Below are positions 1,368 to 58,807 of a stretch of 64,000 bases of DNA, piece after piece. Numbering within the stretch: position 1 is the stretch's first letter; every line of letters starts with the position of its first letter. A program made the position numbers and the translations under genes. The notes below the pieces were generated by a model. The model ran no database searches. It had not been told where the DNA came from and saw only the letters and a program-made list of their open reading frames with translations. Origin of the DNA: an uncultured delta proteobacterium (GTDB lineage: Bacteria; Desulfobacterota; Desulfobacteria; Desulfobacterales; B30-G6); assembly GCA_963823335.1 (NCBI GenBank), contig CAWGLD010000005.1, positions 366,091-430,090 on the forward strand, in the 5' to 3' direction.

Positions 1368-3871
1368 TATTGTCGTTACCTGAAATATTGATTGTGGATG
1401 ATGATGCCAGTTTCCGGGGGCTCCTGGAGGAGTTTCTCAGCAAACAGGGTTTTCATGCCTCGGCTGTCAGTGGTGGGGAAGACGCCGTGAAACAACTGTC
1501 CAAAAGGAAATTCGATGTTGCCCTGCTCGATCTGATGATGCCTGGAATGGATGGTTATGAAGTCATGGACTTCATCAACGATCAAGAACTTGAAACCAAT
1601 GTCATCGTTATGACCGGCAATGCCTCGACACAATCGGCCGTTACTTCTTTGCGGAAAGGTGTATACGATTTCCTGGACAAACCCTTTGATCTGGAAGCAT
1701 TGTCCAGCGCCATTAAGGGTGCCATTGGGAAAAAGCGCTCCAACGATGAAAAAAAAAGAGCCAAGGAAGAACTTGTCCAGGCATACAATGACATGGAAGC
1801 CGAAATCCGGGATCAGACTGCCGAGCTTCTGCGGAAGCACGACCAATTGGACTTGGAAATAGAAAATCGAAATCTTGTTGAAGCTGCCTTTCGAGACAGT
1901 GAAAGCAAATATAAATCCCTGACTGATAATTTGAATGTGGGCGTGTATCGCAATACCGTGGGTGCAGAGGGACAGTTTATCGAAGTGAATCCGGCCATCG
2001 TGCAAATGTTTGGTTATGATTCACGGGAAGAATTTACCGCGGTGAATGTTTCCGATCTGTATGAAGATCCGTCTCAACGGTTGAAATTCAGTGAGGGGCT
2101 GGCCAAAAAAGGTTTTACCAAGAACATCGAACTGTGCCTAAAACGAAAGGACGGTACACCTTTTGTCGGGGCGGTATCCGCCGTGGCCGTCAAGGATGAG
2201 CGTGGTGAAATTCAGTATTATGATGGGATTATCGAAGATATAACCGAGCGGAAACTTGCCGATGAGGCGCTCATCAGAAACGAACACTGGTATCGAACCC
2301 TTACCCAGATCGGGCTTTCCCTGTCCGCGGAAAAGGACACCAAGAAACTTCTGGAACGGATTGTCATCGAGGCCCGGACCCTTACCAATGCTGATGCCGG
2401 AACTCTTTATCTACTGGACAAGGAAACCCAGGAACTGACATTCGAAATTGTCCAAAATGATTCCATACAGATCGAAATAGGCGGCACGGGCGGTGTGAAT
2501 GCCGAGTTGCCCAATGTGCCGCTGTTTATCAATGGTGAACCCAATCATGCCAATGTGTCGTCTTCGGTTGCCTTGACCGGTGAGACCATCAATATAAAAG
2601 ATGTTTACGGGCCAGAAGGAAAACGATTCCCGGGACCCAGGGAATATGACGCCATATCCGGTTATCACACAAAATCGATGCTTGTCATGCCCCTCAAGAA
2701 TCACGAAAACGAGATCATTGGGGTCTTGCAGCTGTTGAATGCCAAACACCTGAAAAGTGGTCAATCCATCTTTTTTTCCGAAGGGTACGTTGATCTGGTA
2801 GCCGCCCTTGCGTCCCAGGCAGCGGTAGCCCTGACCAATGCCCAGTTGATCGAGAACCTCAACAATCTCTTCTATGCCTTTATCCGGAGCATTGCCACCG
2901 CTATCGATGAAAAATCTCCCTATACCGGAGGCCATATAAATCGGGTGGTTCAACTGAGTATGATGCTGGCCGAGAAAATCAATCAAGACGAGACAGGCGC
3001 TTTCAAGAATATCCACTTCACCAAGGAAGAGCTGGAAGAGTTGCGTCTGGCAGCATGGATGCATGATGTCGGTAAGGTGACGACCCCTGAAAATATCGTC
3101 AATAAGGCAAGCAAACTTGAAACAATTTTCGATCGCGTCAATTTAGTCGAAACCCGGTTTGCCCTGATTGCGTCTGAGATGGTTAACAAGCACCTGGAGG
3201 TAAAGCTGGAATTGTTGAAAAGGAAGCAGGTCGATCTTTCAAACGTGGGTCTGGCCGACCAATCGTTAGCTGAAGATTTGCAGATATTGCTTCAAGAGCT
3301 TGAATTCATTAAAACGTGTAACAGCGCTAATCAGCCCATGACCGAAGAACGACTCACGCGTCTTCGGAACATCGGAAAGAAGGAATACACGTTTCAAAAT
3401 GAAAAACGAGCATACCTGACCGAAGATGAAATCAAGAATTTGAGCATACGCTACGGCAACCTCACGGACGAGGAGCGTATGGTTGTTGAGAATCATGCCA
3501 ACATGACGCTCAAGATATTAAAGCAGCTGTCTTTTCCGTTGAAGCTGGAGAAGGTTCCGGAGTTCGCCGGTGGGCATCATGAGAAGTTGGATGGTTCGGG
3601 TTATCCTCTGGGACTTACGGGAAAAGAGCTTCCGCTGCAGACCCGGATTCTGGCCATTGTCGACATTTTCGAAGCGCTGACTGCCCGGGACAGGCCTTAT
3701 CGTAAACCCATGAAGCTTTCCGAGGTGACCAAGATCATAGGATTTATGAAAGATAACCATAAAATTGATCCAGATCTGTTCGATCTTCTCATCGAAAGCG
3801 GCGCCTATTTTGAATACGCCATGCAAGAAATGGATCCTAAGCAGATAGACATACCCAATCCTGTTTCATGA
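1364..3871 (+). CDS. Response-regulator receiver / PAS / GAF / HD-GYP domain protein (probable c-di-GMP phosphodiesterase)
   Basis: REC motifs ('ILIVDDD', 'DVALLDLMMPGMDG'), PAS ('GVYRNT..FIEVNPA'), and a GAF region. HD-GYP signature 'WMHDVGK' ... 'GGHHEKLDGSGYP'. ATGA overlap with the ispD stop. Confidence 0.9.
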   Translation: MILSLPEILIVDDDASFRGLLEEFLSKQGFHASAVSGGEDAVKQLSKRKFDVALLDLMMPGMDGYEVMDFINDQELETNVIVMTGNASTQSAVTSLRKGVYDFLDKPFDLEALSSAIKGAIGKKRSNDEKKRAKEELVQAYNDMEAEIRDQTAELLRKHDQLDLEIENRNLVEAAFRDSESKYKSLTDNLNVGVYRNTVGAEGQFIEVNPAIVQMFGYDSREEFTAVNVSDLYEDPSQRLKFSEGLAKKGFTKNIELCLKRKDGTPFVGAVSAVAVKDERGEIQYYDGIIEDITERKLADEALIRNEHWYRTLTQIGLSLSAEKDTKKLLERIVIEARTLTNADAGTLYLLDKETQELTFEIVQNDSIQIEIGGTGGVNAELPNVPLFINGEPNHANVSSSVALTGETINIKDVYGPEGKRFPGPREYDAISGYHTKSMLVMPLKNHENEIIGVLQLLNAKHLKSGQSIFFSEGYVDLVAALASQAAVALTNAQLIENLNNLFYAFIRSIATAIDEKSPYTGGHINRVVQLSMMLAEKINQDETGAFKNIHFTKEELEELRLAAWMHDVGKVTTPENIVNKASKLETIFDRVNLVETRFALIASEMVNKHLEVKLELLKRKQVDLSNVGLADQSLAEDLQILLQELEFIKTCNSANQPMTEERLTRLRNIGKKEYTFQNEKRAYLTEDEIKNLSIRYGNLTDEERMVVENHANMTLKILKQLSFPLKLEKVPEFAGGHHEKLDGSGYPLGLTGKELPLQTRILAIVDIFEALTARDRPYRKPMKLSEVTKIIGFMKDNHKIDPDLFDLLIESGAYFEYAMQEMDPKQIDIPNPVS

Positions 3872-3901
3872 TACGAATTAGGTTGTTTAGTCTACAGCCT
3901 A

Positions 3902-4399
3902 TCAGCCTGCACATTCAGAAAGAAAATTCTGAATGTGTTCAATGACCTCCTGTGGAGAACCGGCATAGAACAGACGGCCTTGATGTTGAAACGGTTCAAA
4001 TCGTTTCTCTTCCCCGTAATTCAACAGTATAACCGGTTTGCTGCATTTCAATGCCAGGGCAATTTCAGACAAGGTCCCCATGCCCCCTGGACACGCGACC
4101 ACAATGTCGCTGGAGAGGACATTGATGCAGTTTCTGGCATTTCCCATTCCGGTGACGATCGGTATGTGGATGTATTTTGAAGCCGTTTTTGCGCTACTTC
4201 CCGGAAGTATGCCGATGGTCAGGCCTCCCTGGTCGCTGGCACCTTTTGCCGAGGATTCCATAACCCCGGTGTTTCTTGCTCCGTTTAAAAGAATCCAGCC
4301 CTGCCCGGCGATAAGGCCCCCCAGGGTGTAGGCGTTTTCACGTTCCGTGGCACTGGCGGCACCCCCCCCCATGACGCCGATAATCAGAGGTCTTTTCAT
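3902..4399 (-). CDS. TIGR00725 / LOG-like (SLOG superfamily) protein
   Basis: 'IGVMGGG' N-terminus, 'PGGMGTLSEIA' motif, ~165 aa. This is the pattern of the LOG/TIGR00725 Rossmann-like family. Confidence 0.7.
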   Translation of the reverse strand: MKRPLIIGVMGGGAASATERENAYTLGGLIAGQGWILLNGARNTGVMESSAKGASDQGGLTIGILPGSSAKTASKYIHIPIVTGMGNARNCINVLSSDIVVACPGGMGTLSEIALALKCSKPVILLNYGEEKRFEPFQHQGRLFYAGSPQEVIEHIQNFLSECAG

Positions 4400-4545
4400 A
4401 TGATCTCCTCATCTACATAGGCTGTAGGTGTCTAGGCTGTAGACTGTTAGGAATTGCCTATCGTATAGGTGGAATGCAAGTACTTTCCCTGACATTACCA
4501 TTTAACAAACCATATGCCCACTGCGGTCTACGACTAACAGCCTAT

Positions 4546-5667
4546 TTATTCAGCTAAAAGTTTCTTGCTGGTTTTTGTAACCTCAATACCTTTGGATATA
4601 ACCAGAGCCTTACCGATGTCAAACCCGTGTTTGAGCACCTGGTCATCCTGGCTCGAAGCAGATCGCTGAAACGTTCTGGTACGAGGATATTTATGTGACA
4701 TGTAAACCCCGAGCTTGGGGTCTTCCAGGGTTGTCAAAGCAGTTGTTGTTTCCATGTCAGATGGTATGAGTTTCTGATCTGCCAGCTTTTTGCAGAAACC
4801 TTCAACCAATCCGACGGCAAAATCTGTCTTGCGATACCGGTTCAGCGTCCCATGACGGTTGTAGTGACGCCAGTGTCTTTCGATGGTGTTTTTGACGAAA
4901 TCGTAGACATAGGAAGCGATCTTGACATTTTCCGGAACCCCGCTGATCTCAAAAACACGTCCCATTTTTCCTTTTTCAAGGACATAAGATGATACCCAGA
5001 GACCCTGGACAAAATAGTATTTCTGCAACAGGTTTGCCAGATGATACTCCTCTCGATGATGTCGCAATGCCGGAGAACCGATAAACATGCTGACAAAGTA
5101 TCGATGAGACGATTTGTTCAGCAGATCGATGTTGTATTTCCTCATCAGTTCGTGGGCTTTGGTCATGGCGGATTCCGCTTCGTGGCGATTGGTACTTTTC
5201 GCCAGGGACATGAGTTTTTTCACGCGTAGCAGGATCCGATCCTGATTACTGATGGAGCGAAGGTGTATCTGGTCATGCAGTGGTTTGTAGCGGCCGGATG
5301 CTTTTGGATTGGCCCTCAGACGATGGCAAGCCTTTAAAAAATCAGGCCCATGGGGAGACGTCTCTGAAGTCTTGAGAACCTGTTCGGCATACTGGTGCGC
5401 CATTTCATGATACAGGACATCCCGAACATCGTCCCAGGGGTAGTTCAGAGCAAATGCCCGGCTGATGGAAATTTCATTTTTTGATCCAGACCAGTAACCC
5501 AGGCGGCTTTTTATTGTTCGCAGACTGAACAGGGGCTGTTTCATCTGCTGGCGGTCATGGTGAGACAGTACCCAGAGGGCATTTTGCCATTCACAGGCGA
5601 TCCCATGAACGACGCGACGTTCCAGATCCTCCTGCAGACGAATGTCAAACGCTTGCATCTGATTCAT
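4546..5667 (-). CDS. SprT-like zinc metalloprotease fused to a DUF2786-like helical module
   Basis: 'HEMAHQ' HExxH motif in an SprT-like N-domain. 'RILLRVKKLMSLAKSTNRHEAESAMTKAHELMRKYNI' resembles DUF2786. Start is ambiguous (5721, 5667 or 5658), and every option overlaps the upstream gene's stop. Confidence 0.65.
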   Translation of the reverse strand: MNQMQAFDIRLQEDLERRVVHGIACEWQNALWVLSHHDRQQMKQPLFSLRTIKSRLGYWSGSKNEISISRAFALNYPWDDVRDVLYHEMAHQYAEQVLKTSETSPHGPDFLKACHRLRANPKASGRYKPLHDQIHLRSISNQDRILLRVKKLMSLAKSTNRHEAESAMTKAHELMRKYNIDLLNKSSHRYFVSMFIGSPALRHHREEYHLANLLQKYYFVQGLWVSSYVLEKGKMGRVFEISGVPENVKIASYVYDFVKNTIERHWRHYNRHGTLNRYRKTDFAVGLVEGFCKKLADQKLIPSDMETTTALTTLEDPKLGVYMSHKYPRTRTFQRSASSQDDQVLKHGFDIGKALVISKGIEVTKTSKKLLAE

Positions 5668-6448
5668 GGAAAAGCTGATCGAGCTCCGTGTCCCTGTCCA
5701 TCCAGACCGGAAACGTTTCACGGTAATTCTGCAGGGTCGTTAGAGAAAGACTGGCTGTCTGGGTGTGAGCGCGTTTGACCTCTTGAAAATGAACATTGCC
5801 CTGATAATCGACGACACACGAATAGCCGTTGTATTCGATCTGATTGCCGTCCACGCCGATCCGATTGACGCCGATGACATAAGATTGGTTCTCTATGGCC
5901 CTGGCCCGTAAAAGGGTCTGCCATTGGATCTCTCGGGATGCCGGCCAATTTGCGACAACGATGGCCAGATCATAGGGCTTGCCGGAATTTCTCATCCAGA
6001 CCGGGAAACGAAGATCATAGCAGATAAATGGCCGGATACGCCATCCTTTCAGTTCCACTGTCAATTGATGCGTTCCGGCACTATACACCTTTTCCTCTCC
6101 GGTCATCCGAAAGAGATGTTTCTTGTCGTAAGTAACCATCCGGCCATCCGGTTTTGCCCAGATCAAACGATTGAAATAGCGCCCGTCTTCTTCAATCATG
6201 AGACTACCAGTGATGTCGGCGGATTTTTTCTTTGCTTTTTCCATCATCCAGGCCACGGCACTTCCCTGCATGGTTTCGGCAAGACCAGCCGGGTGCATAC
6301 TGAACCCGGTCGAAAACATTTCAGGCAGGAGGATGAGGTCGGTGGGGTTTTCAATGGCTTCGATTTTTTTATCCAGCATTTCCAGATTGGCTTGAGTGTC
6401 TTCCCACGCCAACTCTGTCTGGATGAAGGTAACAATTAAATTCTGCAT
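5645..6448 (-). CDS. Carbon-nitrogen hydrolase family amidase (omega-amidase, YafV/MtnU-like)
   Basis: Nitrilase-superfamily layout with 'LPEMFSTGF' (catalytic Glu), 'DKKHLF' (Lys) and 'ICYDLRFP' (Cys). Length 267 aa. Confidence 0.85.
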   Translation of the reverse strand: MQNLIVTFIQTELAWEDTQANLEMLDKKIEAIENPTDLILLPEMFSTGFSMHPAGLAETMQGSAVAWMMEKAKKKSADITGSLMIEEDGRYFNRLIWAKPDGRMVTYDKKHLFRMTGEEKVYSAGTHQLTVELKGWRIRPFICYDLRFPVWMRNSGKPYDLAIVVANWPASREIQWQTLLRARAIENQSYVIGVNRIGVDGNQIEYNGYSCVVDYQGNVHFQEVKRAHTQTASLSLTTLQNYRETFPVWMDRDTELDQLFHESDASV

Positions 6449-7581
6449 AACTTTTCAGCAGCCCTTTCTAGTGTCTCTTCTCTTTTGGCAAAGCAGAAAC
6501 GCACTACGTTATGATCTGTCATGGTGTGATAAAATACAGAAACCGGTATGGAAGCAACCCCGTGCTCGATGGTCATCCAACGGGTGAACTCAATATCCGG
6601 TAACTCCGAGATAGCATGGTATTGCATCATTTGAAAATAGGTTCCGCTGCATGGGACGGGTTTGAAGCGCGAACCAGCCATATAGGATAAAAAAGCATCT
6701 CTTTTTTCCTGATAAAAGAAAGCCAGATCCTGATACAGATCTTTCTGCTCAAGGATGTCGGCATATGCGAGTTGTATGGGTGTATTGGAGGAAAAAGTAA
6801 GAAACTGATGAACCCGTTGAAACTCCCTGGAGAGTGTTTCCGGTGCCAGACAATAGCCGATTTTCCAACCTGTGGTGTGATAGGTCTTGCCAAAGGAACT
6901 TACGACATAGCTCCTGGCTGCCAGACTGGGATAACGGAGAATGCTTTCATGAATCTGATGGTCAAAAACAATATGTTCGTATACTTCATCGCTCAGAATG
7001 AGGGTTTCTGTGTTGTCAAGGGTCGTTTCCAGGGCTGCCATGTCCGATTTTTGGAGAATGGTGCCCGTGGGATTGTGAGGCGAGTTCAGGATAATAAGGC
7101 GTGTTTTTTCAGAGAGGCTATCCGCAACCTCGTCCCAGTCGATTCGGTAGTCAGGCGGCTTCAACTGCAGGAAAACGGGGATGCCATTGTTCAGTCTAAC
7201 CACCGGGGCATAGGCATCATAGGCCGGTTCGAAAATGATGACTTCATCGCCTGCACGGACCACCGAAGTTATGGCGGCGTACAGTGCTTCCGTGGCTCCG
7301 GAAGTGACGGTGATTTCCGTGTCGGGGTCGTAGTCACAACAATAGAGATCGCGCACCTTCCGGGCAATTTTCTGACGCAGAGCAGGTACTCCCTGCATGG
7401 GGGCATACTGATTGCTGCCTTTTCTCATATAGTCGCTTACGCGCCGAATCAGGTCGGGGGCGGCATCAAAGTCCGGGAAGCCCTGGGACAGGTTGATGGC
7501 CTGGTGGTCATTGGCCAGTTGAGACATGACCGTAAAAATGGTGACACCGACGTCAGGCAGTTTTGAATCGAGTTGTATCAT
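6436..7581 (-). CDS. Class I/II PLP-dependent aminotransferase (YbdL/MtnE-like)
   Basis: 'NLSQGFPDF', 'NSPHNPTG' and 'SFGKTYHTTGWKIGY' (PLP-Lys region) match YbdL-type methionine/glutamine aminotransferases. Confidence 0.85.
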   Translation of the reverse strand: MIQLDSKLPDVGVTIFTVMSQLANDHQAINLSQGFPDFDAAPDLIRRVSDYMRKGSNQYAPMQGVPALRQKIARKVRDLYCCDYDPDTEITVTSGATEALYAAITSVVRAGDEVIIFEPAYDAYAPVVRLNNGIPVFLQLKPPDYRIDWDEVADSLSEKTRLIILNSPHNPTGTILQKSDMAALETTLDNTETLILSDEVYEHIVFDHQIHESILRYPSLAARSYVVSSFGKTYHTTGWKIGYCLAPETLSREFQRVHQFLTFSSNTPIQLAYADILEQKDLYQDLAFFYQEKRDAFLSYMAGSRFKPVPCSGTYFQMMQYHAISELPDIEFTRWMTIEHGVASIPVSVFYHTMTDHNVVRFCFAKREETLERAAEKLCRI

Positions 7582-46420: not shown

Positions 46421-47401
46421 TTAGGTGTGTGCAATATCCGCTTCAAACTGCTGCAACAGAAACCGGTCATACCAGGCTGGTTGAAAAAGACCTTCGATAA
46501 AGCCATTGTGCCCTCCACGCTCGAGCATGATGACATCGGTGCCTGCGCTCGGCTTTAACCGCTGGAATTCCTGGATGGGAATAATGGGATCGTCTGCCGC
46601 TGTCAGGATACTGAGCGGCAGGGTAATCTTTCGGGTGAGTTCAGGCTGAATGCTGTAAGCCTGGAAGTATTCATGAGTACTGGCGTAGTCTGTATGCTTT
46701 TCAAGGAGCCGGGCCGTCATTTCCCGCAGGGTTTTCAGCTTCAGTATATCGGAAAAATCATAGAGCTCCGGATAAAGGGTCTGCTTCAAGGTCAGCGATC
46801 TGCGCCATTTCTTTAAAAAATAGCTCAGTATCAAAGGATTGCTGTCGATCCTGTCGGTGGCCTTGTCCGGGTCCAGTACCGGGCTGATACTCACCACGCG
46901 GTTCAGCTTGCAGGTGTCGTGACCGGCGTATCGGGCAGCGATACGAATGGCAAAATTTCCCCCTAAAGAAAAACCCACCAGATACACAGGCCCTCCCCGG
47001 TTAAAATTGGACGCCTGATGTACAGCATCCCAGACCTCGTCCAGCAGGGTTGCATAAAACAAGCCTTTGTTCAGCTGATGACTGTTGCCGTGATCTCTTA
47101 AATTGAGACGAAAGACAGAGAAGCCGTTTCTGTATAGGTAATCGCCACAGGTCACCATATAAGTTGAATGCGAACTTCCCTCCCATCCGTGAAGCAATAT
47201 GACCAGACCCCGGTTTGTTTCTTTTGATCGGGGTGTATAGACACCTAACAGTTTGGTGTTCTTGCGAGTTTCCAGGACAACCGGTCTTTCCTGGCGCAGC
47301 AAAGCTTTTTTACCCCAGGTACGTATGTTCAGGCTGGCAAGCAATGTCTGAACGACAGCGGGTTTGAGGTAGAACGGTGGCTGGAACGGGGTGAGGTGCA
47401 T
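46421..47401 (-). CDS. Alpha/beta-fold hydrolase (YheT/ABHD-like)
   Basis: 'LLHGWEGS' and nucleophile elbow 'GFSLGGN'. C-terminal 'GGHNGF' His region. Confidence 0.8.
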   Translation of the reverse strand: MHLTPFQPPFYLKPAVVQTLLASLNIRTWGKKALLRQERPVVLETRKNTKLLGVYTPRSKETNRGLVILLHGWEGSSHSTYMVTCGDYLYRNGFSVFRLNLRDHGNSHQLNKGLFYATLLDEVWDAVHQASNFNRGGPVYLVGFSLGGNFAIRIAARYAGHDTCKLNRVVSISPVLDPDKATDRIDSNPLILSYFLKKWRRSLTLKQTLYPELYDFSDILKLKTLREMTARLLEKHTDYASTHEYFQAYSIQPELTRKITLPLSILTAADDPIIPIQEFQRLKPSAGTDVIMLERGGHNGFIEGLFQPAWYDRFLLQQFEADIAHT

Positions 47402-47424: not shown

Positions 47425-49116
47425 TTATTTAAAGGGTTTCCCCAGGGCCTGGTAACACTTGCTGATGTAGGGACCTATATGCTCTTGATTCTTGAAGTCA
47501 AGAAAATAGGTAAGCGCTCTATCATACTCTTTACGATTCATATAATTGATACCCTGGCATACATTCAAATCCATGCTGCTTCTGTATTGGCTGAGCCCCT
47601 GATCCAGTATCTGGATCGATTTTTCAAAGGAACCTTCCTGCTGATAGAGCAGGCCGAGACCCAGGTAGCTTCGGTGATTTGGATAGCAGGCAAGGGATTT
47701 ATGAAAAAGTGTTTTGGAAATCGATGTCCTGTCGGGGATGGCATCTATTTTCGAATAATCCCCATGGCTGAAGGTCATTGCGAGCCTGGAATAAAAATCG
47801 GCATGCAGTCGGTTGAACGCCGGATCTTTGATGAGATCGATATCCTCGACAAAAGACGGCAGGTTTTGATAAAAGGCATGTCTGATGGCTTTTCCGTAGC
47901 TAAGGATATCTTTTGGTTCTATACGGGGGTCAATCTCAAAATAAAGCAGATCTTCTATGCGGTTCTGCCAGACTTCTTCCGTGATGCAGCCTTGGTCAAG
48001 GAGCTCCTGATATAATTGCGTGCCTGGAAAAATATCGAGAATATAGGTGATAACGCTGAGAGGCTTTATGGTCCGAATCAAACTGATAGTGGCTTGAATA
48101 CTCTCCTCTGATTCACCCGGGGAACCATAAATGAAATAGGCACGCGGCATGATACCGTAGTGCTTGACGAGGTCGAATGCTTTTTTGATTTGAGAAATAT
48201 TTAGGGGTTTGTTAAGTTTTTTACGGATCTTTTCAGAGCCGCTTTCGATACCGAAACTGATCTGGATGCAACCGGCTTTTCGCATCCATGCAAGTAGATC
48301 AGCATGGATGTGGTTGACGCGTGCAATGGCAACCCATGTAATATCGAGCCGTCTATGAATAATTTCCTGGCAGATGGCTTGAACCCACTCTTTTTTGTAG
48401 GTGAACGTATCGTCTGAGAAGTAGAAAAAATGAATGCCTTTTTGGGTGAGCAATTCCAGTTGATCCACGAAATAACCGGGAGAGTGGGTACGAACCCGCG
48501 GGCCCCAGAAAAGAGGAGAACCGCAGAAAACACAGTTACCAGGACAGCCCCTGGTAAAGGCCACATGCTGGAATTGAAAATACCGGGCAGGGTTGGGGAA
48601 TTGGTCCAGGTTTTCAACGGGTTCTGCCGGGTCTGTTTTTTGTGGCCGTCCATGATGGCGAAAGGCGATACCACGAATATGCGGGATTTTATCATGTGCG
48701 CCCGTATCCAGCGCGTTGACGAGCTGCAGAAAGGGAATTTCACCCTCTCCAAGGACGATATAATCGATGTCTTGGAAATGAGTCAGCAGGTGATCCCACA
48801 AAAAGGTGGCACCGATACCACCGAAAACGATTTTGATGTCAGGGTTCAGGCTTTTGGCGATTTTGGCAATGTCGATGCCGCCCCATCGATTGGCGTGGAG
48901 GATGGAGAAGCCTATGATGTCCGGGCGTTCTTTGATGATAATCTCAGGAATACGATCGGGCGTATGATGTGCATCGTGCAGATTGTAGATCTGGACATCG
49001 TAATCATTTTCTTTCAGCAGCGCCCCCACATAGTAGATGCCGATGGGGGGTACACTGATATCGTATTCATGGATTCTCTTGTCGAGAAAATAGGGATAGA
49101 TCAGTAATATTTTCAT
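47425..49116 (-). CDS. B12-binding-domain radical SAM protein with C-terminal TPR-like repeats
   Basis: N-terminal cobalamin-binding-like Rossmann region. Radical SAM cluster motif 'CPGNCVFC' (Cx3Cx2C). C-terminal 'YLGLGLLYQQEGSFEKSI..' TPR-like helices. Confidence 0.82.
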   Translation of the reverse strand: MKILLIYPYFLDKRIHEYDISVPPIGIYYVGALLKENDYDVQIYNLHDAHHTPDRIPEIIIKERPDIIGFSILHANRWGGIDIAKIAKSLNPDIKIVFGGIGATFLWDHLLTHFQDIDYIVLGEGEIPFLQLVNALDTGAHDKIPHIRGIAFRHHGRPQKTDPAEPVENLDQFPNPARYFQFQHVAFTRGCPGNCVFCGSPLFWGPRVRTHSPGYFVDQLELLTQKGIHFFYFSDDTFTYKKEWVQAICQEIIHRRLDITWVAIARVNHIHADLLAWMRKAGCIQISFGIESGSEKIRKKLNKPLNISQIKKAFDLVKHYGIMPRAYFIYGSPGESEESIQATISLIRTIKPLSVITYILDIFPGTQLYQELLDQGCITEEVWQNRIEDLLYFEIDPRIEPKDILSYGKAIRHAFYQNLPSFVEDIDLIKDPAFNRLHADFYSRLAMTFSHGDYSKIDAIPDRTSISKTLFHKSLACYPNHRSYLGLGLLYQQEGSFEKSIQILDQGLSQYRSSMDLNVCQGINYMNRKEYDRALTYFLDFKNQEHIGPYISKCYQALGKPFK

Positions 49117-49141: not shown

Positions 49142-50407
49142 TCATATAAAGCTCCATTTCTTTTTCACCATGAGATGAAGCACCCTGACAACGATGGGAT
49201 AATTGGCGGTTTCTCCAGCGCTGTCCACGGGAACGCCGTCGACAGCTTCGACAATTGACAGGATATTGCCGAAAGGATAGCTGTACAAAAGCTCATTCTC
49301 CATTACCAGTACGCTGAAATGATCCGCATTCACCTTGGCCAGTTGAGCATTTTTTATTTCGGCCGGGTCGTCATAGTTGATGCCGATCTCTTCACCTTCG
49401 TATTTCTTCAACAGCGCTTCAAAGTTGGGTTTGGGCAACAGAGTTTTCAAAATGGTATCCGTCCTTTTTTGCTTGTCTTCTCTTTCTATTCTCAATGCCT
49501 CGGCTATTGCTTCTTCAATTTTCCTTTGTGCTTCCTGTTCTTCTATCCTTTTTGTTTCAGCCTCCTCGAGGGCCTCCTTTTGCTTTTTGAGGGATTCGGT
49601 CTCCAGCCTCAGGAAGTCTGTTTCCTGGTTCAAGCTTTCGATTTGTTTCTGGGTGGCCTCGTTTTTTTTAAGCGCCTCCTGTTCTGCCTTCTTCAATGTC
49701 TCCGTATCCATTTTCAGTGATGCGGCATCCATTTTCAAAGAAGCGATTTCCTTCTCTAACAAATCGATGGTTTGTTTTTCTTTTTCAACAGCCGCGGCCT
49801 TTTGATTTTCCTCTTTCTCTTTTTCATCCTGTTGCTTCTTGAGAGCTTCAGCTTTTTGATTTTCTTCTTTCTCTTTCTCATCCTGTTGCTTCTTTAGCGC
49901 TTCAGCTTTTTCTTTTTCCTCTTTCTCTTTTCTTTCCTGTTCCTTTCTGATGGCTTCGGCCTTTTCTTTTTCCTCTCTTTCCTTTTTATCCTGCTGCTGC
50001 TTGAAGGCCTCGTCTTTTTTCCGTTCTTCTTTTTCTGCTTCTTTTTGAAGGGTCAGCGCTTTTTTTAATTCCTCGGCTTCTCTTTTTTCCTGTTCTATTT
50101 TTAATGCTTCGGCTTCTTTTCTTTCCTGTTCCTCTTTTTGGAGTCTTTCCTGGAATTCATAATATTTCGAAAAAATAATGCCGCATTTAATACATTCAGC
50201 CGCTGACGGCGGCACATCATGACCGCATTTTGGACAAGCGGAAAGATTCGGGGATACTGCCTTCTGAACGGCGATAGGTGGGGTCACGCCGCTTTTTAAT
50301 GATTTTTTCAAGACCAGGGAAAGGGTCACGCCGCATTTGTCACATTCTATTGCTGACGCGTCATTCTCATTTCCGCATTTCGGGCACTGAATTGAGTTGC
50401 CACCCAT
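49142..50407 (-). CDS. Double zinc-ribbon protein with long Glu/Lys-rich coiled coil and an unknown C-terminal domain
   Basis: 'CPKCG..14..CDKCG' and 'CPKCG..12..CIKCG' ribbons. E/K-rich repeats. Start at 50407 has a perfect SD 'AAGGAGG'. Confidence 0.7.
   Translation of the reverse strand: MGGNSIQCPKCGNENDASAIECDKCGVTLSLVLKKSLKSGVTPPIAVQKAVSPNLSACPKCGHDVPPSAAECIKCGIIFSKYYEFQERLQKEEQERKEAEALKIEQEKREAEELKKALTLQKEAEKEERKKDEAFKQQQDKKEREEKEKAEAIRKEQERKEKEEKEKAEALKKQQDEKEKEENQKAEALKKQQDEKEKEENQKAAAVEKEKQTIDLLEKEIASLKMDAASLKMDTETLKKAEQEALKKNEATQKQIESLNQETDFLRLETESLKKQKEALEEAETKRIEEQEAQRKIEEAIAEALRIEREDKQKRTDTILKTLLPKPNFEALLKKYEGEEIGINYDDPAEIKNAQLAKVNADHFSVLVMENELLYSYPFGNILSIVEAVDGVPVDSAGETANYPIVVRVLHLMVKKKWSFI
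49797..50012. repeat. Four tandem 54-nt (18-aa) coding repeats; the two copies at 49797-49904 are near-identical
   Basis: 49797-49850 and 49851-49904 differ at a few positions (peptide 'AEALKKQQDEKEKEENQK' x2). Two more diverged units follow. Confidence 0.8.
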
Positions 50408-50716
50408 TCGACTTCCTCCTTTTAAAGCGTAGGAAATATCATCTGAAAAGAAAGATTTTGAAACAATATACTTATCACCAACCATCCCGCAGGTCAAGAC
50501 CTTGAACGCTGTCCATTGCACCCGATGATTGATCGAAAAGCCTTTCATTGACAAGGGGTTAGGGCTCTGGTATTTTTAAATACTATTAGATTGGTTTTCT
50601 TTTGGGAAAGTCCCATGCCCTTGTCACGGTATTGTGCTAAAAAGAATAACCATTGATGACGATGACTTAACGAAGGCAAGAGATGCTTACTTCCCTGGGA
50701 AGCGTTGGAGCAACGC

Positions 50717-52174
50717 ATGAATCGTGAAAGCTTTATCAATCGTCTAAGAACCGATTTGCTGGCCATGGTCGAGAATCATTTAACTCCCGTTGCTATGAAA
50801 TACGGTTATAGTGAAGCGCCTTTGGAGACAAATATCAAATGGAAACCCCTTGTGCTGGTTATCGGCAACTATTCATCCGGAAAATCAACCCTGATCAACG
50901 ATTTTCTGGGAGGTGAAATTCAGGCTACCGGACAGGCACCTACGGATGATTCCTTTACGGTCATTACTTATGACCCTTCCACGTCGCCTGATGGACCTAT
51001 CCGTGTAACCGAAGAACGGGATGGTAAATTTCTGCTGAACGACCCCGAATACCCGTTCGGGTCCATGAAAAAACACGGGCAGCGCTTTTTTTCACATTTT
51101 CGTCTAAAAAAAGTCAATGCCCCTTTTCTAAAAAATCTTTCCGTGATCGATACACCCGGCATGCTCGACAGTATTACAGAAAGAGACCGTGGTTATGATT
51201 ATCAGAATGTCATCGGCGATTTGGCACAGATAGCGGATCTTGTTCTGGTGCTTTTCGATTCCCATAAAGCCGGCACGGTCCGTGAGGCCCATACCAGCTT
51301 GAGAGATACGCTGCCGACCCGAACATTTGAAGATCGCGTACTATTTGTACTGAATAGAATTGATGAATGCGTTTCCCTTGTGGATTTATTACAGGTATAT
51401 GGAACTTTGTGCTGGAATTTATCCCAAATTACCGGTCGCAAGGATATTCCTTCGATCCATCTGACGTACTCACCTGCGGCAATGAAACAATCACCACATA
51501 GTTTCGAAAGGGATCTGGGTTTTTTAAAATATCTTGAAAATCAGCGTACAGAGTTGAAAAATGCCATTTTGATGGCACCACGTCACAGGCTTGACAATCT
51601 GGCAACCTTTGTTGAAACTCATGCAGAACGCGTGTCTCATTTGCTGGAGGCACTTCTGGCCTACCAGAAACGGTTTCAGAAATATAAGATTCGAAATCTC
51701 CTGATGGGCATTTTATTCTCTGTATTCTGCGCTGCCTTGGCCCAAATCGGTTTGATGGCCATGCCGAGTTTTGCGTCTGTCGATCAGGGTATGGTGCTTG
51801 CCTCGAGCGGTCTCGTTTTTGTGGTGATATTTTTGGCATGGGTTTTTTATATCAAAAAATTGTTTTATCATCGATTTAGAAAGCGGCAGCTGAAGCAGTT
51901 GGATGGCTTGACACCCCTTGAGAACCAGACGCGCAGGGACAGCTGGGATTCAATACATGGGCTGGTGTCCAGCTATATCAAAAAAACGGCTGGACAATTT
52001 TCCAAGCGTGATCTGAAAAAGGAGTATGAATCGGTATGGATGGTATTTGAAAAAGGTGCCAAGAAAATCCGGGAGGCTTTGAATGAATTGGCAACCATTC
52101 ATCATGATGACGCCGCGGAGGTGGATAGATGGGTGGACAGGCAATCCACGTTATTGAAGGAAACCCGGGAATAA
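50717..52174 (+). CDS. Dynamin-superfamily NTPase with an EHD-like G domain and a C-proximal TM hairpin
   Basis: P-loop 'GNYSSGKST', 'DTPG', 'NRID'. EHD-like blocks 'RGYDY..V......ADLVLVLFDSHK' and 'VYGTLCWNLSQI'. Two hydrophobic helices at about aa 330-385. Confidence 0.75.
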   Translation: MNRESFINRLRTDLLAMVENHLTPVAMKYGYSEAPLETNIKWKPLVLVIGNYSSGKSTLINDFLGGEIQATGQAPTDDSFTVITYDPSTSPDGPIRVTEERDGKFLLNDPEYPFGSMKKHGQRFFSHFRLKKVNAPFLKNLSVIDTPGMLDSITERDRGYDYQNVIGDLAQIADLVLVLFDSHKAGTVREAHTSLRDTLPTRTFEDRVLFVLNRIDECVSLVDLLQVYGTLCWNLSQITGRKDIPSIHLTYSPAAMKQSPHSFERDLGFLKYLENQRTELKNAILMAPRHRLDNLATFVETHAERVSHLLEALLAYQKRFQKYKIRNLLMGILFSVFCAALAQIGLMAMPSFASVDQGMVLASSGLVFVVIFLAWVFYIKKLFYHRFRKRQLKQLDGLTPLENQTRRDSWDSIHGLVSSYIKKTAGQFSKRDLKKEYESVWMVFEKGAKKIREALNELATIHHDDAAEVDRWVDRQSTLLKETRE

Positions 52175-52241
52175 AAAGCCTTAGGTAAATATCATATTGA
52201 ACTTTTCATCAGAAGCACCCCCATCCTTACAAACACAGAAC

Positions 52242-53411
52242 ATGGCGGGGCGCATCATAACCGCCATTTTTTGTCGACTGCTCTTAAACACGGCAAGACG
52301 GTTTGCTTATCCGTTTGCCCCGGTTTTGAGCCGGGGTTTAGGGGTTCCCCTTACAGCCATTACCTCTCTCATCGCGGTCAATCAAGCTACAGCCATTCTG
52401 GGAATCGGCTTTGGCCCGCTTTCCGATCGTTTTGGTTACCGTCGGATGATGCTCATTGGTATGGGCATGCTATCACTGGGTATGTTGGCTGCAGGTTTTT
52501 TCCCATTCTATTATTCAGTCATGATCGCCTTGTTTCTGGCGGGTTTGGGCAAGAGTGTATTTGATCCCGCCATCCAAGCATATGTGAGCCGGCAGGTTCC
52601 CTATCATAAGCGGGGGATGGTTATCGGATTATTGGAAACGAGCTGGGCCGGCAGCACACTGATCGGCATTCCCTGTATGGCCATCCTCATGAATCGACTT
52701 GACTGGCGTGCTCCTTTTTATGTGCTGGGCGGTCTTGGTCTGGTGGGTCTATTTGCCCTGGTCTCCTTATTCCCCAATGACAAACGGGCCAAAAGCCCTG
52801 TTTTAAAAAAAGAGACCTTATGGAGCGCATGGCCGTACTTGATCGTGGACAGGTCGGCTTTAGGGGCATTGGGTTATGCGTTCTTTATCAGCGTTGCCAA
52901 TGATAACCTGTTTGTTGTTTATGGGGCCTGGCTGGAACAATCCTTTCATGTCAGTGTCGTTGTGCTCGGTATTGGAACCGGCGTTATTGGTTTGGCAGAA
53001 TTGTGTGGGGAAGGGCTTACGATTTTGATTTCCGACCGGATCGGCCTGCGCCGGTCCATTTTTTCCGGTCTGGTGTTGACCATTGTCAATTATGCTTTGA
53101 TTCCCTTGTATGAGGTGGGTCTGTCGTTTTCTCTGGTGGGGATTTTTATGGTTTTTCTAAGCTTTGAATTTATGATTGTGACCAGTATGTCTCTGTGTAC
53201 TGAAATTCTTCCGGCTCACCGTGCCACCATGATGGCAGCCTTTTTTGCAGCAGCAGGCGCAGGCAGGGTTATCGGTGCTCTAATCGGGGGGCATATATGG
53301 CTTTTCGGCGGTATATGGCTTACAGGCATGGTATCTGCCGGTATCACGCTGCTGGCTTTATTTTCGCTGATACTCGGATTGAAAGCCTGGCATCCTGTTT
53401 TGGATGCCTGA
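52242..53411 (+). CDS. MFS transporter
   Basis: About 12 TM segments. 'G.LSDRFGYRR' loop 2-3 motif. Start is uncertain (TTG 52197 or ATG 52242). Confidence 0.8.
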   Translation: MAGRIITAIFCRLLLNTARRFAYPFAPVLSRGLGVPLTAITSLIAVNQATAILGIGFGPLSDRFGYRRMMLIGMGMLSLGMLAAGFFPFYYSVMIALFLAGLGKSVFDPAIQAYVSRQVPYHKRGMVIGLLETSWAGSTLIGIPCMAILMNRLDWRAPFYVLGGLGLVGLFALVSLFPNDKRAKSPVLKKETLWSAWPYLIVDRSALGALGYAFFISVANDNLFVVYGAWLEQSFHVSVVVLGIGTGVIGLAELCGEGLTILISDRIGLRRSIFSGLVLTIVNYALIPLYEVGLSFSLVGIFMVFLSFEFMIVTSMSLCTEILPAHRATMMAAFFAAAGAGRVIGALIGGHIWLFGGIWLTGMVSAGITLLALFSLILGLKAWHPVLDA

Positions 53412-53415
53412 TGAC

Positions 53416-53772
53416 TCAGACCAGGCCCTCCCCCCTTAAGCGGGTCATGGCTGATTGTCCGATGCTTGTCACGTGACTCAAGGCTTTCGAGAGATGATAT
53501 GGGGCGTCATGGATTACTTTTGAATTCAGCATAACGACGGCGTTGTTGATGTGCCTGAGGGCCGTTTCCCAGTGTTCATTCGGTGCAAGTTTCATCCCCA
53601 GGTGGATTTCATTGGTAACCATGCCCACCAGTGCCGCAATAATCTGCTCGGCCCCCGGTTTGTTCTGCTCCGTTAACCCAACAACTATTTCGATGGCCTG
53701 AGACGTCCATATAAGACCCGCTTTGATTTTTTCACTTTGTGAGAATGCCAATATCGCCGATTGTGTATCCAT
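53416..53772 (-). CDS. Hypothetical all-helical protein (118 aa)
   Basis: Only an ORF of coding-like composition. No motif recognised. Confidence 0.4.
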   Translation of the reverse strand: MDTQSAILAFSQSEKIKAGLIWTSQAIEIVVGLTEQNKPGAEQIIAALVGMVTNEIHLGMKLAPNEHWETALRHINNAVVMLNSKVIHDAPYHLSKALSHVTSIGQSAMTRLRGEGLV

Positions 53773-53836: not shown

Positions 53837-54415
53837 TTGAAAGCAATTAGGCATATCTTTATGAAAACGGTTGTAAATTCGATTTTTGATATGGGTAGCC
53901 GGCAGCATTTTCGAACAGGCTGTGCTGGAGGCGCTCGGCAGTTCAAGGGGTGGTTGGGTCTGTTTTTTGTTGTTGTCGCGGCAATCATTCTGGTGTCGGG
54001 TTGCGGTGTCCTGAAACCGATCGAAAACGCATCTGTCGAGGGTGGCCTTTCACAAGCAGGCACGGTGGGTGCAGGTGTTTATCATGATTTTGATGATATT
54101 CTCATTCCCAAAACCATGCAGGTAAACCGCAAGATGACATCCGTATTTGAAACCTCCACCATTTCGGCCGGGGTTCTTTCAGTGGGTGGGATGCTTAAAA
54201 TTGATGAATTAATTGAATTTTTCAAGACGAACATGACAAAAGACAACTGGACGCTCATCAGTATGTTCAAAGGACCACGATCGATACTTCAATTTGAGAA
54301 AGGAAACCGCTGGTGTATAATGACCTTGATGGACAGGCGATACGGCTACAAGACACAGGTTGAAATATGGGTCACACCGAAAAATGAAGCCCAGTCGTCT
54401 GGCTTATTGAAGTGA
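53837..54415 (+). CDS. Lipoprotein of unknown function
   Basis: Lipobox 'LVSGCG' after a hydrophobic h-region. Confidence 0.55.
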   Translation: MKAIRHIFMKTVVNSIFDMGSRQHFRTGCAGGARQFKGWLGLFFVVVAAIILVSGCGVLKPIENASVEGGLSQAGTVGAGVYHDFDDILIPKTMQVNRKMTSVFETSTISAGVLSVGGMLKIDELIEFFKTNMTKDNWTLISMFKGPRSILQFEKGNRWCIMTLMDRRYGYKTQVEIWVTPKNEAQSSGLLK

Positions 54416-56607: not shown

Positions 56608-57885
56608 ATGAAAATATCGCACTGTATTCGCCTTTCCCTGATACTGGTATTGTTGTCCGCCGGCATTTCATCCGCCGGTAGCGGCGAAATTATTATCATA
56701 CCGGTTTCGGACGCCATTGGGCCTGGCGTCGCTGATTTTGTAACACGCGGTATTGCCCGCGCGGACGACCAGAACGCAGCCTGTGTCGTCATCGAACTCG
56801 ATACACCCGGCGGTCTGGCAGATGCCATGCGCGAAATTGTAATGGCCACATATGCTGCAAAAACACCTGTAGTTGTCTTTGTATCGCCAAGCGGTGCCAG
56901 AGCGGCTTCAGCGGGGGTCATGATAACCATGGCGGCCGACATTGCGGCCATGGCACCTGGTACCAATATTGGGGCGGCGCACCCGGTGGCAAGCGGCGGC
57001 AAGGAGATCGGGGGCATCATGTCGGAAAAGGTCACAAACGATATGGTGGCGTATGTGAAAAGTATCGCGGAAAAAAGGGGCCGCAATGTGGAATGGGCGG
57101 AAAAGGCTGTTCGCGAGAGTGTGTCGGTAACCGAAAACGAGGCTCTTGAAAACAATATCATCGATATCGTCGCAAAAGACATGGACGATCTTGTTCGACA
57201 GCTCGACGGTTACAGTGTAGAGGGTAAGGGAGATTTGCAACTGTCGGGTGCCATGCGAAACCGGCTCAAGGAGAGTATTCGCACAAAAATACTAAAAACC
57301 ATCAGTGACCCAAACATCGCCTATATTCTGATGATGATCGGACTGGCCGGGCTCTATTTTGAACTCTCGCATCCAGGTGCGATTTTCCCCGGCGTGGTGG
57401 GGGGCATTGCCCTCATCCTGGCCTTTTTTTCCTTCCAGACACTTCCGGTGAACACAGCCGGTATCTTGTTGATTTTTCTTTCCATTATATTCTTTATATT
57501 GGAAATAAAAGTCGTCAGCTATGGGCTCTTGAGCATTGCCGGTGTGGTGTGCCTGCTTTTGGGCTCCCTCATGATGTTTGAAGGGGAGGGACCCCAGTCA
57601 CAGCTGTCATGGCATGTATTGATTCCGACCCTGCTTATTGTCTCTGCCTTTTTTGTCACCTTGGCAAGTCTGGCTTTCAAGGCACAGGTGTCGCCCCCAC
57701 GAACCGGGGGAGATGGCCTGGTTAGAGAAATAGGTATTGTCAAAAAGCGTATCGACCCGCAGGGAAAGGTCCTGATTCATGGTGAGCTTTGGTATGCACG
57801 GGCCAAAGAACCGATCGAAGAAGATGAACAGGTTCGTGTGGTGGCTGTTGAAGACCTGGTACTGAATGTCGAACGCATTAAATAG
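56608..57885 (+). CDS. NfeD-family membrane-bound ClpP-class serine protease
   Basis: ClpP-like N-domain ('DTPGG', 'GARAASAG'), central TM block, C-terminal OB-like NfeD domain ('G.V.I.GE.W.A'). Confidence 0.88.
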   Translation: MKISHCIRLSLILVLLSAGISSAGSGEIIIIPVSDAIGPGVADFVTRGIARADDQNAACVVIELDTPGGLADAMREIVMATYAAKTPVVVFVSPSGARAASAGVMITMAADIAAMAPGTNIGAAHPVASGGKEIGGIMSEKVTNDMVAYVKSIAEKRGRNVEWAEKAVRESVSVTENEALENNIIDIVAKDMDDLVRQLDGYSVEGKGDLQLSGAMRNRLKESIRTKILKTISDPNIAYILMMIGLAGLYFELSHPGAIFPGVVGGIALILAFFSFQTLPVNTAGILLIFLSIIFFILEIKVVSYGLLSIAGVVCLLLGSLMMFEGEGPQSQLSWHVLIPTLLIVSAFFVTLASLAFKAQVSPPRTGGDGLVREIGIVKKRIDPQGKVLIHGELWYARAKEPIEEDEQVRVVAVEDLVLNVERIK

Positions 57886-58054: not shown

Positions 58055-58807
58055 ATGTTATCGATAACAACCATTGCCATCATCGTACTGGTCATCTTTT
58101 TTTTGTCGGCCTCCTTGAAGATTTTGAACGAGTATGAACGGGCCGTAATTTTCAGGTTGGGGCGTGTTATCACGGCCAAGGGTCCGGGCCTGATAATACT
58201 AATCCCGGTGATCGATAAAATGGTGAGGGTCAGCCTGAGGCTCATCGTTATGGATGTCGATCCTCAGGACGTCATCACCCGAGATAATGTTTCCGTCAAA
58301 GTGAATGCCGTTATATATTTTCGGGTTATCGATTCAACCAAAGCCATCATAGAGGTAGAAGATTTTAGCTATGCCATGTCACAGCTTGCACAGACCACCA
58401 TTCGAAGTGTTTGCGGGCAGGCTGAACTGGATGAGCTATTGGCGGAAAGAGACAAAATCAATGCAGAACTTCAAGAAATTCTCGACACCCATACAGATCC
58501 CTGGGGGATCAAGGTTGCGACGGTTGAGTTGAAGCATATTGATCTGCCCCAGGAGATGCAGCGCGCCATGGCCCGCCAGGCAGAAGCCGAGAGGGAGCGG
58601 CGGGCCAAGATTATCAATGCCGAGGGCGAATTCCAAGCCGCGGCAAAACTGGCCGAAGCGAGTGAAATCATTTCCGAGCACCCGGTGGCGCTGCAGTTGC
58701 GATACCTGCAGACCGTGAATGAAATGTCGACCGAAAGCAATACCACCACCATTTTTCCCATTCCCATTGATTTGTTTAAGCCATTTCTCAAATTGATGGA
58801 CAAATAA
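58055..58807 (+). CDS. SPFH/Band 7 (stomatin-like, slipin) protein
   Basis: '[12 protein letters not shown]', '[16 protein letters not shown]', '[21 protein letters not shown]'. Confidence 0.92.

Follow-up and report, generated by a model that had tools for sequence, protein, structure and literature searches.

The DNA analysed here (the window) is a stretch of 64,000 nucleotides from contig CAWGLD010000005.1 of an uncultured delta proteobacterium of the Desulfobacterales. Among surrounding housekeeping genes such as MurJ, FtsB, CoaBC and UDG, it contains a gene for a dynamin-like NTPase, which is flanked upstream by a divergently transcribed gene for a double-zinc-ribbon, KE-rich coiled-coil protein and downstream by an MFS transporter gene. 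The open reading frame (ORF) lies on the + strand, ends at 52174 and could begin either at 50705 (TTG) or at 50717 (ATG). The ATG is the likely start, since a GGAG is found 6 nt upstream of it and orthologues of 60-92% identity begin at the same methionine. Pfam recognised only the generic Dynamin_N (1.8e-15) and MMR_HSR1 domains in the product. No match above threshold was obtained in the NCBIfam scan, in which LeoA reached 12 bits against a cutoff of 325, and none of NCBIfam, PHROGs and PADLOC provided a family assignment. A sequence-only reading of this gene had proposed that its G domain is specifically like that of the eukaryotic EHD proteins and not like those of BDLP, DynA or LeoA. EHDs are textbook eukaryotic membrane-remodelling ATPases. 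The ORF coordinates and every peptide block quoted in that reading agree with the translation, and the EHD strings set beside them there are those of mouse EHD2 as they appear in the PDB alignment. As described below, the gene product belongs, as a bacterial representative, to the EHD/sarcalumenin branch of the dynamin superfamily.

The affinity to EHD is specific by every test that was run, namely sequence, profile, fold and tree. Searched alone against the PDB chains with phmmer, the window protein matched EHD2 (6e-28) and EHD4 (1e-26) over its residues 18-250, while the next dynamin-like chain, a Campylobacter dynamin-like protein (DLP; 5owv), followed at 0.008. With a family profile built from 26 members, EHD2 was matched at 8e-31, compared with 0.004 for SynDLP, the best of the other dynamins, 0.08 for BDLP, 0.12 for IniA and 0.2 for Drp1. 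BLASTP aligned the window protein with EHD2 residues 17-241 at 30.7% identity over 244 columns (E 3e-34), and hhalign against 14 canonical metazoan EHDs gave a probability of 99.8%, an E value of 5.6e-30 and 31% identity over 264 columns. Seven DLPs of the ordinary bacterial kind (E. coli RdcA/YjdA and DLPs from plasmids of Bacillus, Lysinibacillus and Anabaena) were used as a control. Their scores did not exceed 23 bits with the EHD2 fragment and 27 bits with the window protein, whereas the window protein and EHD2 scored 101 bits in the control comparison. Moreover, EHD and the window protein have the same insertions in the G domain, among them the RGYD(F/Y) and D-x-HK motifs, the latter reading DSHK in the window protein and DAHK in EHD2.

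A different reading, that the gene encodes an ordinary dynamin of the BDLP/YdjA type or a small GTPase like Era or EngB, would agree with the generic Pfam matches and with the database labels of the relatives, which are called 'dynamin family protein' by NCBI and in some cases 'EngB' or 'SAR1 family' by JGI (the JGI pipeline already names some members 'EH domain-containing protein 1'). Against it stand the E values from the one profile given above and the NCBIfam scores for Era, EngA and YlqF, which are an order of magnitude under their cutoffs. The control scores, the Foldseek ranking and the tree agree with this verdict, so that we treat the ordinary-dynamin reading as already refuted and its probability as negligible.

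For the fold we used an AlphaFold2 model computed from 68 diverse relatives, with a mean pLDDT of 89.3 and a pTM of 0.82. It replaced an earlier run on 26 close homologues, whose quality was mediocre (pLDDT 75). In the Foldseek search of the model against PDB, the first five ranks were taken by EHD4 (5mvf at 6e-17, 5mtv and 7sox) and EHD2 (4cid, and 2qpt at 3.5e-12), with TM-scores of 0.50-0.64. IniA, Campylobacter DLP1/2, BDLP and the mitofusins (MFN) came after them, from 5.6e-10 on and with TM-scores of at most 0.49. The order was unchanged with the poorer model, the EHDs again being first. The predicted fold is thus nearest to EHD4 and EHD2, seven orders of magnitude before IniA, BDLP and MFN.

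A neighbour-joining tree was built from 211 G-domain columns of 119 sequences with 200 bootstraps, and the seven ordinary DLPs served as the outgroup. Some of these outgroups came from a search of the plasmid database PLSDB, which returned no family members and only distant DLPs of 27-30% identity. The ingroup, composed of the canonical EHDs, two types of bacterial proteins and a set of protist proteins, split from the ordinary DLPs with a bootstrap of 0.99. The canonical EHDs were monophyletic (bootstrap 1.0) and stood at the base of the ingroup, outside the bacterial subclades, and the monophyly of the non-EHD ingroup was 0.625. The tree therefore excludes an ordinary BDLP and argues against a recent transfer from eukaryote to bacterium; as a distance tree with long branches and metazoan EHDs only, it leaves the polarity of an ancient transfer unsettled. 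Together with the profile, fold and control comparisons, it bears out the EHD-specific G domain that had been proposed from the sequence.

The layout of the protein and the other features of the window are compiled in Table 1. We then asked how far the homology extends beyond the G domain, using a broader bacterial profile made from 74 diverse relatives, which also provides the residue counts. In the local hhalign alignment, bacterial residues 2-466 were aligned to EHD 11-406. A forced global alignment was not taken as evidence by itself, and sub-regions were aligned separately with controls. The N-terminal helix alone (aa 1-42) matched EHD 1-58 with a score of 26.6 (P 1.9e-7, probability 94%), and its reversed or shuffled controls scored 10.3 at most. 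The region after the hydrophobic hairpin (aa 378-470 alone, against EHD 300-410) scored 23.8 with P 1.4e-4, placing residues 385-462 onto EHD 323-402; over all sub-regions the reversed and column-shuffled controls reached at most 13.2. Whether the alignment was local or forced to be global, the hairpin of 52 residues (L328-I379) falls at the EHD segment 'EMPxVFGKDNKKK', in the place of the membrane-binding tip of EHD. The spacing is similar as well: from the conserved Pro-Arg ('PRH' at 288-290, 'PRN' at 286-288 in EHD) to the membrane element there are 40 residues here and 36 in EHD, and from the membrane element to the end of the helical domain about 81 here and 77 in EHD. In the model, the helix 287-348 has a pLDDT above 90, and the C-terminal part is formed by the helices 357-393, 404-424 and 430-484.

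Table 1. Coordinates of the EHD-like gene, its signals and domains, and of other genes in the window
Feature	Position	Strand	Note
CDS, EHD-like NTPase	50717..52174	+	485 aa plus stop; alternative TTG start 50705
Promoter-like site, TTGACA-17-TATTTT with TG extension	50548..50576	+	divergent intergenic region; consensus scan, 10/12 matches
Shine-Dalgarno-like GGAG	50707..50710	+	6 nt upstream of ATG, seen in the sequence itself
N-terminal helix (aa 1-41, helix 3-28), first half of composite EHD-type helical domain	50717..50839	+	hhalign; helix in model
Dynamin-type G domain, EHD type (aa 42-286)	50840..51574	+	profile search, hhalign, Foldseek
P-loop G50-NYSSGK-S57 (EHD2: GQYSTGKT)	50864..50887	+	G50 72/74, K56 72/74, S57 74/74
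Switch I A74-PTDD-D78 (EHD2: EPTTD)	50936..50950	+	T76 57/74, D77 68/74, D78 72/74
'PEYPF' loop (aa 103-128), counterpart of EHD KPF loop	51023..51100	+	aligned to EHD2 DPEKPFRKLNPFG; P113 invariant in A1
Switch II D145-TP-G148	51149..51160	+	D145 73/74, G148 71/74
G4 N213-R-I-D216 (EHD2: NKAD)	51353..51364	+	N213 65/74, D216 73/74
Helix aa 221-239 with W233, counterpart of EHD alpha6/W238	51377..51433	+	W233 74/74; aligned with W238
Long helix aa 287-327 starting 'PRH', putative counterpart of EHD alpha8 ('PRN')	51575..51697	+	full-length hhalign; leads to membrane
Predicted transmembrane helix 1 (L328-M349)	51698..51763	+	hydropathy 2.2
Predicted short periplasmic loop (P350-V360), no K or R	51764..51796	+	family-wide K/R density
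Predicted transmembrane helix 2 (L361-I379, with W375)	51797..51853	+	hydropathy 2.6; W375 invariant in A1
Post-hairpin helices aa 380-460, counterpart of EHD alpha9-alpha12	51854..52096	+	hhalign; second half of helical domain
Charged, poorly conserved C-terminal tail (aa 461-485)	52097..52171	+	low conservation; pLDDT 57-68
B12-binding radical SAM enzyme with C-terminal TPR repeats	47425..49116	-	adjoins alpha/beta hydrolase gene
Alpha/beta hydrolase	46421..47401	-	
Double-zinc-ribbon/KE-rich coiled-coil protein	49142..~50407	-	listed ORF extends to 50554; true start probably Met50 of listed ORF
54/108-bp tandem DNA repeats	49800..50044		encode the coiled coil of the zinc-ribbon protein
MFS transporter	52197..53411	+	
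Small ORF	53416..53772	-	118 aa
Small ORF	53837..54415	+	192 aa
NfeD	56608..57885	+	operon with Band_7/SPFH
Band_7/SPFH	58055..58807	+	operon with NfeD

Compared with eukaryotic EHD1-4/RME-1 (2qpt, 4cid, 5mtv, 7sox), the protein is alike in a G domain of about 245 residues with 31% identity, in the alpha6 tryptophan, in a PF-containing loop at the position of the KPF loop, in the composite helical domain and in a membrane-contacting element at the matching point of that domain. It is unlike them in that the linker with GPF, the EH domain, the NPF, the polybasic/Phe tip and NKAD belong to the eukaryotic proteins. As the sequence-only reading had stated, the EH domain is absent; the Pfam scan detected no EF-hand_4 or EH domain, and the protein stops about 25 residues past the helical domain. 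The two adjacent hydrophobic helices described in the same reading are real, but they do not take the place of the EH domain, because the hairpin sits inside the helical domain and about 80 residues follow it. At the equivalent position we found this transmembrane (TM) hairpin and no polybasic/Phe peripheral tip of the EHD type. By these alignments the protein is an EHD core, made of the G domain and the composite helical domain, whose peripheral lipid-binding tip is replaced by a TM hairpin.

Pfam EHD_N (PF16880) and PF18150 did not match the window protein, nor the most EHD-like bacterial proteins and the protist proteins that were scanned. EHD_N is present in all canonical EHDs; window residues 4-33 align to EHD 13-42, leaving the first about 12 EHD residues unmatched. 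The NPF of the KPF loop is missing too, 'KKHG' being found at the position of EHD2 'NPFG', and this loss fits a protein that has no EH domain to bind NPF.

The NTPase motifs of the protein are intact and conserved (Table 1). Among the 74 relatives, the second position of G4 is K in 47 and R in 26. R158 is kept in 69 and K184 in 58 of them, and we take these two to correspond to EHD2 R167 and K193, which presumably are residues of the G interface. W233 is invariant, being present in all 74 relatives. In EHD, the aligned W238 is the centre of the EHD-specific dimer interface-1, and the W238A exchange makes EHD insoluble (PMC9741607). The KPF loop, to which the 'PEYPF' loop corresponds, is the oligomerisation interface-2 (PMC9741607).

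The two hydrophobic segments occur as a pair in 71 of the 74 diverse relatives, with a median loop of 11 residues. Family-wide, the density of K and R falls from 0.27 on the N-terminal side of the hairpin to 0.07 in the loop and rises again to 0.24 on its C-terminal side, and the N-terminus has no signal peptide-like character. Under the positive-inside rule, this K/R pattern suggests an N-in/C-in hairpin, with the G domain and the C-terminal helices in the cytoplasm and only the short loop in the periplasm. The resulting order of G domain, helical bundle, TM hairpin and cytoplasmic C-terminal helices in about 480 aa is the layout of atlastin and mitofusin, as established for those families. 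By analogy, it suggests a possible tethering or fusion mode. The protein might then be a membrane-anchored fusion or repair DLP like atlastin/Sey1, mitofusin/Fzo1 or DynA/IniA, in which G domains on opposing or damaged membranes dimerise in trans and hydrolysis drives tethering, fusion or resealing of the inner membrane. Mitofusin structures were indeed significant in Foldseek (E 9e-9 to 5e-7, TM-score up to 0.49), the G-interface residues that such G-G contacts require are conserved, and the proximity of some members of the family to SPFH genes, described below, recalls the genetic link of DynA with flotillin in Bacillus subtilis. However, atlastin/Sey1 and mitofusin/Fzo1 are not the closest relatives, as all sequence and fold measures group the protein with EHD. 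The invariant alpha6 tryptophan points to a constitutive parallel dimer of the EHD style, an interface that is absent from the fusion DLPs, and the G-interface contact on which the fusion reading draws can work in cis as well as in trans. We therefore consider a fusion or repair DLP the main rival to the scaffold proposed below, weakened and clearly less probable than it.

Relatives of the window protein are numerous. Among the scored candidates, more than 1900 proteins matched at E <= 1e-3, and the top 120 of them are proteins of 460-510 aa with 60-92% identity from Desulfobacterales and Thermodesulfobacteriota metagenome-assembled genomes (MAGs). When one genome per GTDB species was scanned, at least 538 genomes were found to encode a relative, mostly Desulfobacterales and including the complete genomes of Desulfosarcina alkanivorans PL12 and D. 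widdelii PP31. In an exhaustive search of 1.84 billion representatives, 1439 clusters (50% identity) were obtained at E <= 1e-3 and 169 at E <= 1e-30. The gene is near-core in Desulfobacterales and its synteny is conserved.

The bacterial proteins can be divided into two subgroups. First, those of the window type carry GNYSSGKS, NRxD and VYGTLCW and are found in Desulfobacterota, Zetaproteobacteria and other Pseudomonadota. Second, a subgroup with GNHSSGKS and NKVD, of about 450 aa and with a TM hairpin as in the window type (P0167, P0288, P0289, P0433-P0551), is found in Opitutales, Planctomycetota, Kiritimatiellia, Lentisphaerota and a MAG labelled Wenzhouxiangella, in plainly bacterial gene contexts. 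Members of the second subgroup reach 167 bits and 35% identity against the EHD2 G domain, compared with 101 bits for the window protein. Judged by these scores, the second subgroup, which is concentrated in bacteria of the PVC group, is closer to EHD than the window type. EH-less protist proteins from euglenids (P0208, P0236), dinoflagellates (P0221, P0256) and an oomycete (Pythium, P0225), together with P0264, nest inside the GNHSSGKS/NKVD subgroup in the neighbour-joining tree. They score 130-158 bits against the window protein and have 520-850 aa, several with long N-terminal extensions, some of which are hydrophobic. Following PMC7016017, they probably represent the sarcalumenin-like lineage; sarcalumenin is placed in the branch shared with the window protein, and the protist relatives are eukaryotic and longer.

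A recent transfer from a eukaryote, or a contaminant, could be suspected from the slightly low GC of the 2-kb stretch that contains the gene (0.44, compared with 0.45-0.53 elsewhere). Such an origin is hardly credible in view of the at least 538 species genomes, the complete Desulfosarcina chromosomes, the 1439 clusters and the conserved bacterial synteny. It is also opposed by the two deep bacterial subgroups with the canonical EHDs outside them and by a gene that has neither an EH domain nor introns. Within this large bacterial family, the window gene is an ordinary member that was inherited vertically.

We further analysed the gene neighbourhood. At the locus of an orthologue of 85% identity (L001), the gene context matches that of the window. 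The clustering of flanking ORFs from 81 loci returned no neighbour family in more than 16 of them, and the MFS, Cys/Met PLP enzyme and GGDEF neighbours represent local synteny. With no neighbour conserved across the family, this is a stand-alone gene, unlike LeoA/LeoBC, DLP1/DLP2 and DynA. The zinc-ribbon gene was considered as a family-wide partner and rejected, as no more than 8 of 67 loci have it upstream, each of them from the nearest clade (including L001 and L002). Its product combines a Pfam DZR match (4.5e-9) with an extended coiled coil rich in Lys and Glu, and its conserved C-terminal domain matched no family.

The absence of a recurrent partner bears on a further reading, in which the protein would serve in antiphage defence as an Eleos-type (LeoA/LeoBC) or other dynamin-like protein. 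In sequence and in fold, LeoA/LeoBC and Campylobacter DLP1/DLP2 (5owv, 5oxf) rank among the closest bacterial DLPs that have been characterised. In the fold search, the Campylobacter DLP matched at 2e-9, IniA being marginally ahead at 5.6e-10. PADLOC gave weak, partial matches to LeoA (9e-8, 30 bits) and LeoBC (6e-6, 24 bits, aa 270-457), LeoBC likewise has a membrane-embedded region, and EHDs are listed among the human homologues of LeoBC (Cury et al. 2022). These Leo scores are, however, three to four times below those against EHD, and the NCBIfam LeoA/HP0731 score was 12.3 bits against the cutoff of 325. LeoA/LeoBC and DLP1/DLP2 are two-gene or paired systems whose proteins, of 550-700 aa, have bundles of the neck and trunk type, and they are far more distant than EHD. 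Eleos requires two adjacent DLP genes, and a second Dynamin_N gene was found neither beside the gene in the window nor recurrently in the 81 loci. Moreover, the housekeeping surroundings, the conserved synteny and the near-core presence in Desulfobacterales at 60-92% identity do not resemble a variable defence island, and no PHROG was matched. A role in defence is thus very unlikely. BDLP, DynA, IniA and SynDLP share with the protein the dynamin superfamily, a G domain with helical bundles and a membrane-inserting paddle or tip, but they differ by profile E values of 0.004 to 0.12, by Foldseek TM-scores of at most 0.36 and by their outgroup position at 99%.

Two arrangements bring the gene near SPFH operons. 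In the window and its clade, NfeD and Band_7/SPFH genes form an operon 4.4 kb downstream on the same strand. In the subclade containing Desulfosarcina, the order is NfeD, SPFH/Band_7, a Cys-tailed protein of 131 aa and the EHD-like gene, all read in the same direction and, in one locus, 23, 4 and about 250 bp apart (L080 3917-7470; the corresponding cluster of L039 is 2235-7470). In the D. alkanivorans cluster, a GGDEF gene is inserted (L039 3771-4865). Taken together, the two arrangements hint modestly at a functional connection with membrane microdomains. The Cys-tailed protein, of about 131-153 aa, was seen directly upstream of the EHD-like gene (43-250 bp) in about 16 of 79 loci and ends with 'GGSC(S/G)DCGCGCGGH' (L080 5355-5750 (+); L039 5383-5844 (+)). 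It is fused to Band_7 in L067 (4479-5753) and has no Pfam match, and by eye its core may resemble the FKBP/SlyD type with a metal-binding tail. As to GGDEF, the dynamin-like pair YjdA/YjcZ of E. coli (L088 5136-8239, which is K-12 NC_000913 4327135-4330238) now carries the annotation RdcA/RdcB, 'regulator of diguanylate cyclase', and the resemblance to the GGDEF insertion of D. alkanivorans is probably coincidental.

As far as its sequence tells, then, this stand-alone gene encodes an intact, conserved EHD-type NTPase core that is predicted to be permanently anchored in the membrane. The best explanation of these properties is an EHD-type curvature scaffold anchored in the cytoplasmic membrane, for which we see a little better than an even chance. 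EHDs form dimers via alpha6/W238 and oligomers via the KPF loop and the G interface, bind membranes at the helical domain's tip and use hydrolysis as a disassembly timer (PMC9741607, PMC13427840). Since the three EHD assembly interfaces are conserved and the EHD mechanism is described in the literature, the following steps may be proposed. The TM hairpin would be a permanent anchor in the cytoplasmic membrane that leaves the N-terminus, the G domain and the C-terminal helices on the cytoplasmic side, and a stable dimer would form through the helix carrying W233, as in EHDs. On binding of nucleotide (ATP or GTP), the dimers would assemble on the cytoplasmic face via the G interface and the YPF loop, and membrane-bound oligomers would result. 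The wedge-like hairpins and the oligomeric scaffold could then impose or stabilise curvature of the inner membrane, as in necks, tubules, invaginations or membrane domains, and assembly-stimulated hydrolysis would be the timer that disassembles the scaffold. The system would be a single-gene module, which may cooperate with the SPFH/NfeD proteins of membrane microdomains.

Several points weigh against the anchored curvature scaffold. It is from conservation that dimers, oligomers, a nucleotide preference and the remodelling of membranes are all deduced, and a permanently anchored protein cannot use the recruitment-and-release cycle of the EHDs. In the helical domain, the pre-hairpin helix taken alone gave no significant hhalign match to EHD. 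Switch I reads PTDD where EHD has PTTD, and EHD2 E91 is aligned to Ala74, so that catalysis and the details of the interface may differ. G4 is NRID followed by Glu (E217), compared with NKAD followed by Met in EHD2; in view of these differences in G4 and switch I, a preference for ATP or GTP is not inferable. The proximity to SPFH genes, moreover, concerns about 1/5 of the loci and is largely due to shared ancestry within two clades.

The curvature scaffold can be extended to a bolder picture, which we regard as rather improbable as a whole. The bacterial proteins would be prokaryotic forerunners of the EHD machinery, forming nucleotide-driven rings or filaments that hairpins wedge permanently into the cytoplasmic membrane and that, together with SPFH/NfeD, build or stabilise necks or invaginations of the inner membrane, as a bacterial parallel to EHD2 at the caveolar neck. 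The lipid-inserting tip of eukaryotic EHDs would be a remnant of an ancestral TM hairpin, and the particularly EHD-like versions of Planctomycetota and Verrucomicrobiota would aid the elaborate membrane invaginations of these bacteria.

The family as such had been noticed before. Schäffer, Iyer, Burroughs & Aravind (Front Genet 2020) reported that EHD and sarcalumenin 'show clear bacterial origins' and proposed a role in membrane dynamics for bacterial homologues of EHD that have two TM helices (PMC7016017), treating the bacterial family in a single paragraph and with a stylised tree. The window protein is one of these homologues. The idea that the family is uncharacterised therefore holds in part: our literature search found no experimental work on any bacterial member, but the family had been noted computationally in 2020. 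The finding thus concerns a real, computationally recognised family and not a new kind of system. The text of PMC7016017 does not report the abundance of the family in Desulfobacterales and PVC bacteria. As far as we found, the following are also added here: the finding that the helical domain is homologous as well and carries its hairpin where EHD has the membrane-binding tip, the invariant tryptophan of the dimer interface, the stand-alone gene, the two subgroups with the PVC type nearest to EHD, and the SPFH/NfeD operons in two arrangements. In 2026, a Nature Communications paper on EHD2 filaments still described EHDs as 'exclusively found in eukaryotes' (PMC13427840), and a quarter-century review of EHD from the same year never mentions prokaryotes. 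Searches of the literature for a link of EHD to Deltaproteobacteria, eukaryogenesis, archaea or Planctomycetes gave nothing relevant, and the matches for 'EHD-like' were hydrogenases or unrelated.

The family is a well-supported lead into an under-appreciated group of proteins that makes the origin and the core mechanism of EHD approachable by experiment. It offers a simple single-gene, EH-domain-free system for the core mechanochemistry of EHD, and its natural NKxD and NRxD variants permit a direct test of how specificity for ATP or GTP arose. It also makes the origin, in bacteria, of part of the endomembrane toolkit of eukaryotes accessible to study and suggests that sulfate reducers and PVC bacteria possess an as yet unstudied activity that shapes membranes.

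Some minor features of the window are added here. The promoter-like site of Table 1 is a pattern match only, and the sites found did not exceed the shuffled expectation. The two small ORFs downstream of the MFS transporter gene have no Pfam match and their positions are kept in L001; the 192-aa product has an N-terminal hydrophobic, lipoprotein-like segment. On the other side, the pair of genes for the radical SAM enzyme and the alpha/beta hydrolase is likewise kept in L001.

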